Shown here piece after piece: positions 23,547-23,995 of a stretch of DNA of 64,000 bases. How positions within the stretch are numbered: position 1 is the stretch's first letter; each line of letters opens with the position of its first letter. Source of the DNA: Escherichia coli (GTDB lineage Bacteria; Pseudomonadota; Gammaproteobacteria; Enterobacterales; Enterobacteriaceae); the NCBI RefSeq assembly GCF_050920415.1, contig NZ_CP169309.1; one strand, written 5' to 3'. The notes below the pieces were generated by a model. The model saw nothing but the letters and a program-made list of their open reading frames with translations. It ran no database searches and had not been told where the DNA came from. The position numbers and the translations under genes are program-made.

Positions 23547-23604
23547 GATAATTTTTTAATCGTTTTGAAATTGAATGCTTTACTCAAAGTCAGGAGGATT
23601 AATC

Positions 23605-23946
23605 ATGAGAAAATCAGTGGTGACATTAGCTTGTTTGTTTTTTATTAGTGCATGTAAGCCATCAGATAATTATGTTATTTCTTTAGGGGAAAACTTAGTT
23701 AAAGATAAGCTTATTGATCCTGATAGTGCAAAATTTAATTCTTTTTTTCATAAGTCAGGTGATTTATATGGTTATGTTTGTGGTGATGTTAATTCAAAAA
23801 ACACGTTTGGTGGATATACAGGGAAAAAGCCATATTTTGTTTATTTGGAAGTTGTGGATGGAAAAGTTAAGAGTCATGGGACTGTAACAATTGTTAATGA
23901 TCATGATCCAAGCAGTATGGAAAAATATAAGTTGTTTTGCCAATAA
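23605..23946 (+). CDS. Lipoprotein moron (113 aa; lipobox FISAC)
   Basis: AGGAGG SD; signal peptide with lipobox; markedly AT-rich insert with its own terminator, between GT chaperone and tape measure. Confidence 0.6.
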   Translation: MRKSVVTLACLFFISACKPSDNYVISLGENLVKDKLIDPDSAKFNSFFHKSGDLYGYVCGDVNSKNTFGGYTGKKPYFVYLEVVDGKVKSHGTVTIVNDHDPSSMEKYKLFCQ

Positions 23947-23956
23947 TTATCATCTT

Positions 23957-23981
23957 AAAAAACCGCAGAAGCGGTTTTTTT
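23957..23981 (+). terminator. Intrinsic terminator after the lipoprotein moron
   Basis: AACCGC-agaa-GCGGTT followed by TTTTTTT. Confidence 0.55.
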
Positions 23982-23995
23982 ATGGGGTAAAGTAA

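Follow-up and report, generated by a model that had tools for sequence, protein, structure and literature searches.

A low-GC moron encoding a predicted lipoprotein of PHROG 2320 between the tail chaperone and tape measure genes of an Escherichia coli prophage

The word moron was first applied to gene 15 of phage HK97 (PMC3594210), whose product gp15 is a superinfection-exclusion protein (Juhala 2000 and Cumby 2012, as summarised in PMC3594210). Known morons of tail operons and late regions include Bor and Lom according to the same paper. A small extra gene in a comparable position was analysed here in a 64,000-nucleotide stretch of Escherichia coli DNA (contig NZ_CP169309.1, assembly GCF_050920415.1), referred to throughout as the window, which corresponds to an E. 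coli prophage whose head is of the HK97 type and whose tail is of the lambda type. The neighbours of the gene are the tail assembly chaperone genes G and T on one side and the gene for the tape measure protein (TMP) on the other. It can be said with high confidence that the DNA from ~23478 to 23981 is a horizontally acquired moron cassette in this G/T-TMP slot and that it encodes an exported protein with a lipoprotein signal, a predicted fold and near-invariant cysteines Cys59 and Cys112, which belongs to PHROG 2320 and is dispensable for the virion.

Gene T ends with its stop codon at 23546 and the TMP gene begins at 23996. The whole spacer that separates them, 23547-23995, holds one convincing open reading frame (ORF) at 23605-23946 on the + strand. 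The ORF specifies 113 amino acids with an N-terminus that reads MRKSVVTLACLFFISAC followed by KPSD. An earlier note, made without database searches, had pointed out an AGGAGG Shine-Dalgarno sequence and the lipobox FISAC, and both are seen in the sequence. Signal peptides were judged by a PROSITE PS51257-type rule that asks for a positive n-region and an h-region free of charge, followed by [LVI][ASTVI][GAS]C whose cysteine falls at residues 15-35. Read by eye, the translation conforms to this rule, with R2 and K3 forming a basic n-region, an uncharged h-region and F-I-S-A-C17. Position +2 is occupied by lysine, for which the Lol-avoidance rule predicts delivery to the outer membrane. A longer reading of the ORF from 23575 was rejected; it has no ribosome-binding site and is used neither by PGAP nor by homologues.

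The gene has a GC content of 0.304 and a third-position GC content (GC3) of 0.193, while genes V, G, T and H span 0.49-0.52 and 0.46-0.50, respectively. The earlier observation that it is more AT-rich than the flanking tail genes (GC 0.30 versus 0.49-0.52) is thereby borne out. Segments of 342 bp with an equally low GC content make up 0.2% of the 64 kb, and the gene is the lowest-GC stretch of the window. Comparison of two E. coli alleles gave 16 synonymous and 6 non-synonymous codon differences, 3 of the 6 within the signal peptide; the ORF is therefore a real coding gene under purifying selection. Rfam gave no match above threshold on the region. A sub-threshold match to the prophage small RNA isrK at 23912-23981 (+), which spans the 3' end of the gene and the hairpin described below, reached 17.6 bits (E=0.34), where the gathering score is 50, and is most likely due to chance.

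The region is 100% identical in E. coli E21845/O/A, UTAK-5 and the chromosome NZ_OU342919.1. The junction was matched in 876 complete E. coli genomes, and the whole 701-bp query was spanned in 17 of the 876. Among the matches listed, the non-carrier E. coli genomes have both flanks within 298 bp, which represents the empty state. Phage records agreed with this in that 10 of the 11 that matched cover both flanks in ~298 bp without the insert, the eleventh matching the TMP flank only. The gap from T to the TMP gene measures 46 nt in an empty-site prophage (L004), and the alignment to that prophage breaks at ~23478, inside gene T. The last ~23 codons of T are low in GC and differ from the corresponding sequence in empty-site prophages, which places the recombination joint inside T. 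This arrangement suggests that the cassette and the terminal part of a T gene were taken up together, the donor being a phage in which the cassette already occupied this slot.

Extra DNA that is missing from otherwise collinear relatives and a base composition unlike that of the neighbouring genes were thus both found at this locus. The interpretation of the spacer as an accessory insertion, a moron, put forward in the earlier note stands on these grounds, as the DNA is missing from most close relatives and foreign in composition. Its proposed bounds reflect a real observation but need to be extended, since the foreign DNA begins ~70 bp earlier, inside T. The junction had also been described as normally tight. 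This is wrong for this phage group, because HK97 gene 15 occupies this archetypal moron slot, the one for which the term was coined.

The protein matches PHROG 2320, which is catalogued as 'unknown function', over its full length (E=2e-33, residues 1-113). The same phrog_2320 profile was matched by ES18 gp20 and by SEN5, Klebsiella, Atlantibacter and M. abscessus prophage proteins. The family comprises 1986 representatives at E<=1e-3 among 50%-identity clusters. A profile search returned 853 matches at E<=1e-5 without a functional name, the entries reading only 'hypothetical protein' or 'Lipoprotein' where named. At least 459 family copies lie on viral contigs and a further search found copies in 159 plasmid records, mostly SSU5-like phage-plasmids. 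One match of 2054 aa (P0068) is a repetitive surface protein and was set aside as probably spurious.

Curated libraries contributed little to the description of the family. Pfam returned nothing for the query (E<=10), and 100 relatives gave only fused SPOR, PsiF and Zn-ribbon domains. NCBIfam had no match for the query, PADLOC reported no defence family at E<=1, and the family profile matched no PDB sequence. Fold searches of AFDB50 and BFVD recovered uncharacterised relatives only. Homology to a structural tail component, which the earlier note had named as a finding that would go against its reading, was searched for and yielded no structural PHROG, Pfam or PDB match.

The family alignment shows near-invariant residues at D38, P39, S41, A42, F44, C59, G60, N63, K65, N66, G69, Y71, G73 and C112, and residues 74-111 are highly variable except for Cys112. 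In a set of 225 members, a second cysteine follows the core motif on its C-terminal side in 218. The signal rule found a strict lipobox in 124 of the 225, the rest showing on inspection ordinary signal peptides or transmembrane (TM) segments, and the +2 residue is Asp in 10 members. Relatives are also found fused to SPOR, PsiF or, weakly matched, SH3 domains.

An AlphaFold2 model calculated with the family alignment reached a pLDDT of 92.2 and contains a helix at residues 21-33, antiparallel strands at 43-51, 55-65, 71-84 and 87-96, and a helix at 102-112. The mature domain of ~97 aa is accordingly modelled, with confidence, as a compact helix, four-strand sheet and helix of the cystatin/NTF2-like class. 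In this topology one end of the sheet carries both the DPDSAxF loop and the VNxKNxxGGYxG hairpin, so that the conserved polar side chains probably make up a single patch in the predicted structure. Membership of the cystatin inhibitor family I25, which combines the cystatin fold with an N-terminal Gly, a QxVxG loop and a PW loop, was considered and rejected as the protein does not show this combination.

The genomic position of family members was classified in 80 viral loci. The gene lies immediately 5' of the TMP gene in 25 of these and one or two small ORFs 5' of it in another 9; the remainder lie between TMP and M (6), in the K/I region (17), in the P2-like D/ogr-int slot (5) or elsewhere (18). 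In every tail-operon locus classified the family gene is co-oriented with the tail genes. Its GC content is below that of the flanks in all 79 viral loci compared (mean 0.414 versus 0.533), and as this is seen even among alleles that are 31-60% identical, the AT-richness is maintained and not merely a mark of recent transfer. ES18 gp20 and the Citrobacter and Klebsiella copies share the pre-TMP slot of the window, an Atlantibacter copy sits in the TMP/M slot, and the K/I slot holds the copies in Fraca and in P. aeruginosa, where the protein is fused to SPOR. SEN5, a Mu-like Pseudomonas prophage and a Bosea prophage are further carriers, and the copies in M. abscessus prophages adjoin a polymorphic-toxin cassette. 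A V. cholerae prophage copy lies 26 nt 3' of a CI-like repressor gene on the same strand, and another family copy also lies beside a CI-like repressor; such positions are typical of exclusion genes expressed in the lysogen. Among the contexts inspected gene by gene only that in Rouxiella looked non-phage, and PHROG 2320 is carried almost entirely by temperate phages.

Some further features of these loci were noted. Wherever the family gene occupies the K/I slot, the next gene is a conserved 111-aa ORF (phrog_914, unknown function; L001 4355-4690, L030, L039-L042), which could be a partner gene or a resident gene of the tail region. In SSU5-like phage-plasmids of ~105-120 kb a family member lies between the primase gene and a phrog_4248 gene (NZ_CP024271, L106 4971-5384). 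The LF82 phage Cyrano has an empty 75-nt junction after its primase gene (L107 34715-34791), which constitutes another presence/absence site. As Cyrano is without the gene, the LF82 transcriptome (PMC9928086) gave no expression data on the family.

The earlier note had credited the insert with its own terminator. The hairpin in question, AAAAAACCGC-AGAA-GCGGTTTTTT at 23957-23980 (23957-23981 with the T-run), has a 10-bp stem and a 4-nt loop and folds with -15.3 kcal/mol (z = -4.6), none of 200 shuffles being as stable. A simple terminator scan did not report it, probably because the T-run forms part of the stem. The empty 46-nt junction already has an equivalent hairpin, AACCGC-TTCG-GCGGTTTTTTTT, with the same stem as the window, and a T-run hairpin just 5' of the TMP start codon is also found in HK97 and in every carrier of the T/TMP slot examined. 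It thus appears to belong to the junction rather than to serve as a private terminator of the insert. It may tune the expression of the distal tail genes. The stem AACCGC/GCGGTT is common to the window, the empty E. coli site and the Citrobacter carrier, and the hairpin is located at 1650-1690 in L004 and at 2095-2125 in L010.

Upstream of the gene, the weak candidate promoter listed in Table 1 is kept in alleles that are 94-95% identical (L020-L022). Diverged relatives (ES18, which is L002, together with L008, L011, L023, L024 and L026) have a promoter-like xTGACx-N17/18-TAGGAT/TAGCAT element that is positionally conserved, lying 27-60 nt 5' of the family gene and ending 27-31 nt before the ATG. 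The window allele is without the xTGACx-N17/18-TAGGAT element of these relatives. In ES18 and Klebsiella the -10 of the promoter-like site is of the TG-extended kind, and the site overlaps an inverted repeat.

Envelope-acting exclusion of incoming phages is proposed as the most likely role of the protein, an assignment by analogy that is tentative and given well under an even chance. The precursor would be processed by Lgt, LspA and Lnt and, given Lys at +2, delivered by the Lol system to the inner leaflet of the outer membrane, and a Cys59-Cys112 disulfide would be expected to form in the oxidising periplasm. The domain could then serve as a periplasmic binding or blocking module in which the conserved end, with the DPDSAxF loop and the VNxKNxxGGYxG hairpin, would be a shared scaffold or ligand site and the hypervariable C-terminal half would provide specificity. 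A lysogen would in this way be shielded at or just after adsorption through disturbance of either receptor use or the tail tip/tape-measure DNA channel across the periplasm. The same protection may operate late in lytic growth, since the gene is co-oriented within the late tail operon. In function, the nearest analogues would be HK97 gp15, from the same slot, the outer-membrane lipoproteins Cor and Llp, and Ltp. Exclusion is favoured because the same slot holds an exclusion gene in HK97, because small phage lipoproteins of known function often exclude phages (Cor, Llp, Ltp), because some family members occupy immunity regions, and because a conserved scaffold combined with a hypervariable half is what would be expected of a recognition module. 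The varied anchors and the SPOR, PsiF and SH3 fusions point to the periplasm, and not the cell surface, as the site of action. The exclusion idea is a best guess that draws on analogy and genomic context, not homology. Taken as a whole, the account given here is considered the best explanation of the locus, at somewhat less than an even chance, a figure that reflects the mechanism.

Several results weigh against exclusion by this gene. A promoter scan found no + strand site upstream of the gene, and the candidate promoter at 23524-23552 was equalled or beaten by 61% of composition-matched shuffles. As there is no promoter better than chance, expression of the window allele in the lysogen stays a supposition, and H-NS-type silencing of DNA with 30% GC is plausible. 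The 5' ends of the TMP genes are ~96% identical between carriers and non-carriers, so that nothing points to co-adaptation of the insert with the neighbouring TMP. Furthermore, the strictly conserved polar cluster extends from Proteobacteria as far as Mycobacterium prophages, which speaks for a common ligand rather than phage-specific recognition. No homology to known exclusion proteins was found in the PDB profile search, PADLOC or the comparison with Bor, Cor and gp15, and literature searches for a PHROG 2320 member with a phenotype, expression or localisation found none. A broader proposal, considered unlikely as it stands, is that PHROG 2320 is an unrecognised cross-phylum class of periplasmic exclusion factors, in which a disulfide-stapled cystatin/NTF2-like module would dock by its invariant D38/N63/K65/N66/Y71 end on a conserved envelope component such as peptidoglycan and the hypervariable C-terminal half would intercept the tail tip or tape measure of phages trying to enter. 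If true, the family would be the functional counterpart of Ltp, and this might help to explain its closeness to tape-measure and tail-tip genes.

Other roles have to be set beside exclusion. The protein might serve host fitness or virulence in the manner of Bor or Lom, as an envelope lipoprotein that alters the lysogen's serum resistance, adhesion or stress tolerance but leaves phages unaffected. Such a role would be in keeping with the predicted outer-membrane sorting signal, with the Lom-type gene of the same prophage at 33128-33727 and with the standing of Bor and Lom as known tail-operon or late-region morons (PMC3594210). It is nevertheless thought unlikely as there is no similarity to Bor past the signal peptide, as the family occurs in soil, water and plant bacteria and in Mycobacterium prophages, where serum resistance is irrelevant, and as the varied anchors, which include soluble periplasmic forms, argue against surface display. 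A periplasmic inhibitor or immunity protein directed against peptidoglycan hydrolases (including phage tail lysins), colicins or T6SS effectors, with the conserved pocket binding an enzyme class or cell-wall ligand, is regarded as distinctly unlikely.

It is likewise quite improbable that the gene acts in the lytic cycle only, being expressed by late-operon read-through and either preparing the envelope or, like T5 Llp, stopping progeny from re-adsorbing to debris, without lysogenic conversion. A gene that runs in the direction of the tail genes at all tail-operon loci classified, and a window allele without a promoter better than chance, are what such a role would predict, whereas the positionally conserved promoter-like site xTGACx-N17/18-TAGGAT shared by several relatives and the copies that adjoin CI-like repressors in immunity regions, or sit at prophage ends, are not. 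A structural tail component or tail assembly factor is suggested only by the position between the tail chaperone and TMP genes and is effectively excluded: tail assembly takes place in the cytoplasm, yet the protein carries a Sec/lipoprotein export signal, the gene is missing from most phages with ~96% identical flanking tail genes, family members are found in unrelated slots and phage types (P2-like, Mu-like, phage-plasmids), and no structural PHROG was matched.

Features of the locus are collected in Table 1. By sequence reading, the G/GT -1 frameshift site A AAA AAG is intact at 23235-23241 and the T frame is open from 23241; the predicted GT fusion reads ...EVKKK-VALPGMRFLMM.... Further along the same tail operon, 3' of J, a gene for a Lom-type outer-membrane protein at 33128-33727 (+; phrog_108, E=6.6e-106) constitutes a second envelope moron. 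The stretch 37697-39914 (+), located 3' of the tail-fibre assembly gene, encodes a 590-aa protein (phrog_19509, unknown function) followed by a NUDIX hydrolase gene. These genes may be cargo at the prophage end, and the region appears different in E21845/O/A, the strain that is 100% identical at the T/TMP junction. Other low-GC islands were seen at ~2151-2750 (minimum 0.336) and ~41711-42170 (minimum 0.333).

Table 1. Coordinates of features at the G/T-TMP junction (window positions).
Feature	Position	Strand	Basis or remark
Tail assembly chaperone genes G and T	22858..23546	+	PHROG 344, 337, 14766
Low-GC 3' end of tail assembly gene T (~23 last codons), left edge of imported segment	23478..23546	+	L004 alignment; GC 0.319 vs 0.536 in rest of T
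Candidate sigma-70 promoter TTGCTC-N17-GATAAT, weak	23524..23552	+	Sequence reading, relaxed scan
Shine-Dalgarno AGGAGG	23592..23597	+	7 nt 5' of ATG; read from sequence
Coding sequence, 113-aa prolipoprotein, PHROG 2320 member	23605..23946	+	RefSeq WP_071605788.1 'hypothetical protein'
Lipoprotein signal peptide (residues 1-16) and Cys17, putatively lipid-modified	23605..23655	+	Lipobox I-S-A-C, Lys at +2
Intrinsic-terminator-like hairpin with T-run	23957..23981	+	15 nt 5' of tape-measure ATG
Tape measure protein gene, 1066 aa	23996..27196	+	PHROG 339, E=0; PGAP annotation

Morons are one of the main ways in which prophages alter their hosts, and the majority have no known function. The gene described here is an ordinary moron in itself; its family is unusually large, is in no curated domain library and markedly prefers tail-operon junctions. 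Should the family turn out to be an exclusion or immunity module acting at the envelope, one assay would annotate thousands of prophage 'hypothetical lipoproteins' in Enterobacteria, Pseudomonas, Acinetobacter and Mycobacterium, and the result would bear on the prediction of host range in phage therapy. With no phage-related phenotype, the gene remains a catalogued accessory gene.

Several described systems resemble the locus in part. HK97 gp15 occupies the identical slot, from the G/T chaperone genes to the TMP gene, and is likewise an envelope protein encoded by a small low-GC extra gene that is followed by a hairpin just 5' of the TMP start. It is a 62-aa inner-membrane protein, whereas the gene in the window encodes a 113-aa predicted lipoprotein with a folded periplasmic domain. 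No alignment between gp15 and the query was found, and the similarity and single-TM inner-membrane topology by which the gp15 family is defined were not seen in the query. Lambda Bor, also a prophage lipoprotein, resembles the protein in size and in its C-terminal Cys but is encoded at a different genomic location. Kinship to it was rejected, as blastp and the family profile match the signal peptide only and there is no Pfam match at E<=10. Cor of HK022, phi80 and N15 and Llp of T5 are outer-membrane lipoproteins that block FhuA; like the candidate role proposed here, these small phage lipoproteins, encoded in or near tail genes, exclude phages at the envelope. Only positions 1-20 of the family profile, that is the signal peptide, align to HK022 Cor, and kinship was rejected here too. 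The comparison with Bor and Cor made in the earlier note thus does not extend to descent, signal peptides alone being alignable, and is a functional analogy at most. Tab and Tai were dismissed as relatives, being unrelated cytoplasmic systems. Ltp of Streptococcus phage TP-J34, which is said to be aimed at the tape measure protein, offers another parallel. It too is a prophage lipoprotein, one that mediates superinfection exclusion (PMC3952083). ES18 gp20 is a true homologue that matches phrog_2320 at 3.2e-35 (query 2e-33), lies in the pre-TMP slot and is annotated 'possible moron; function unknown'; it differs in its length of 151 aa and shows ~41% tblastn identity to the query over core residues 18-81.
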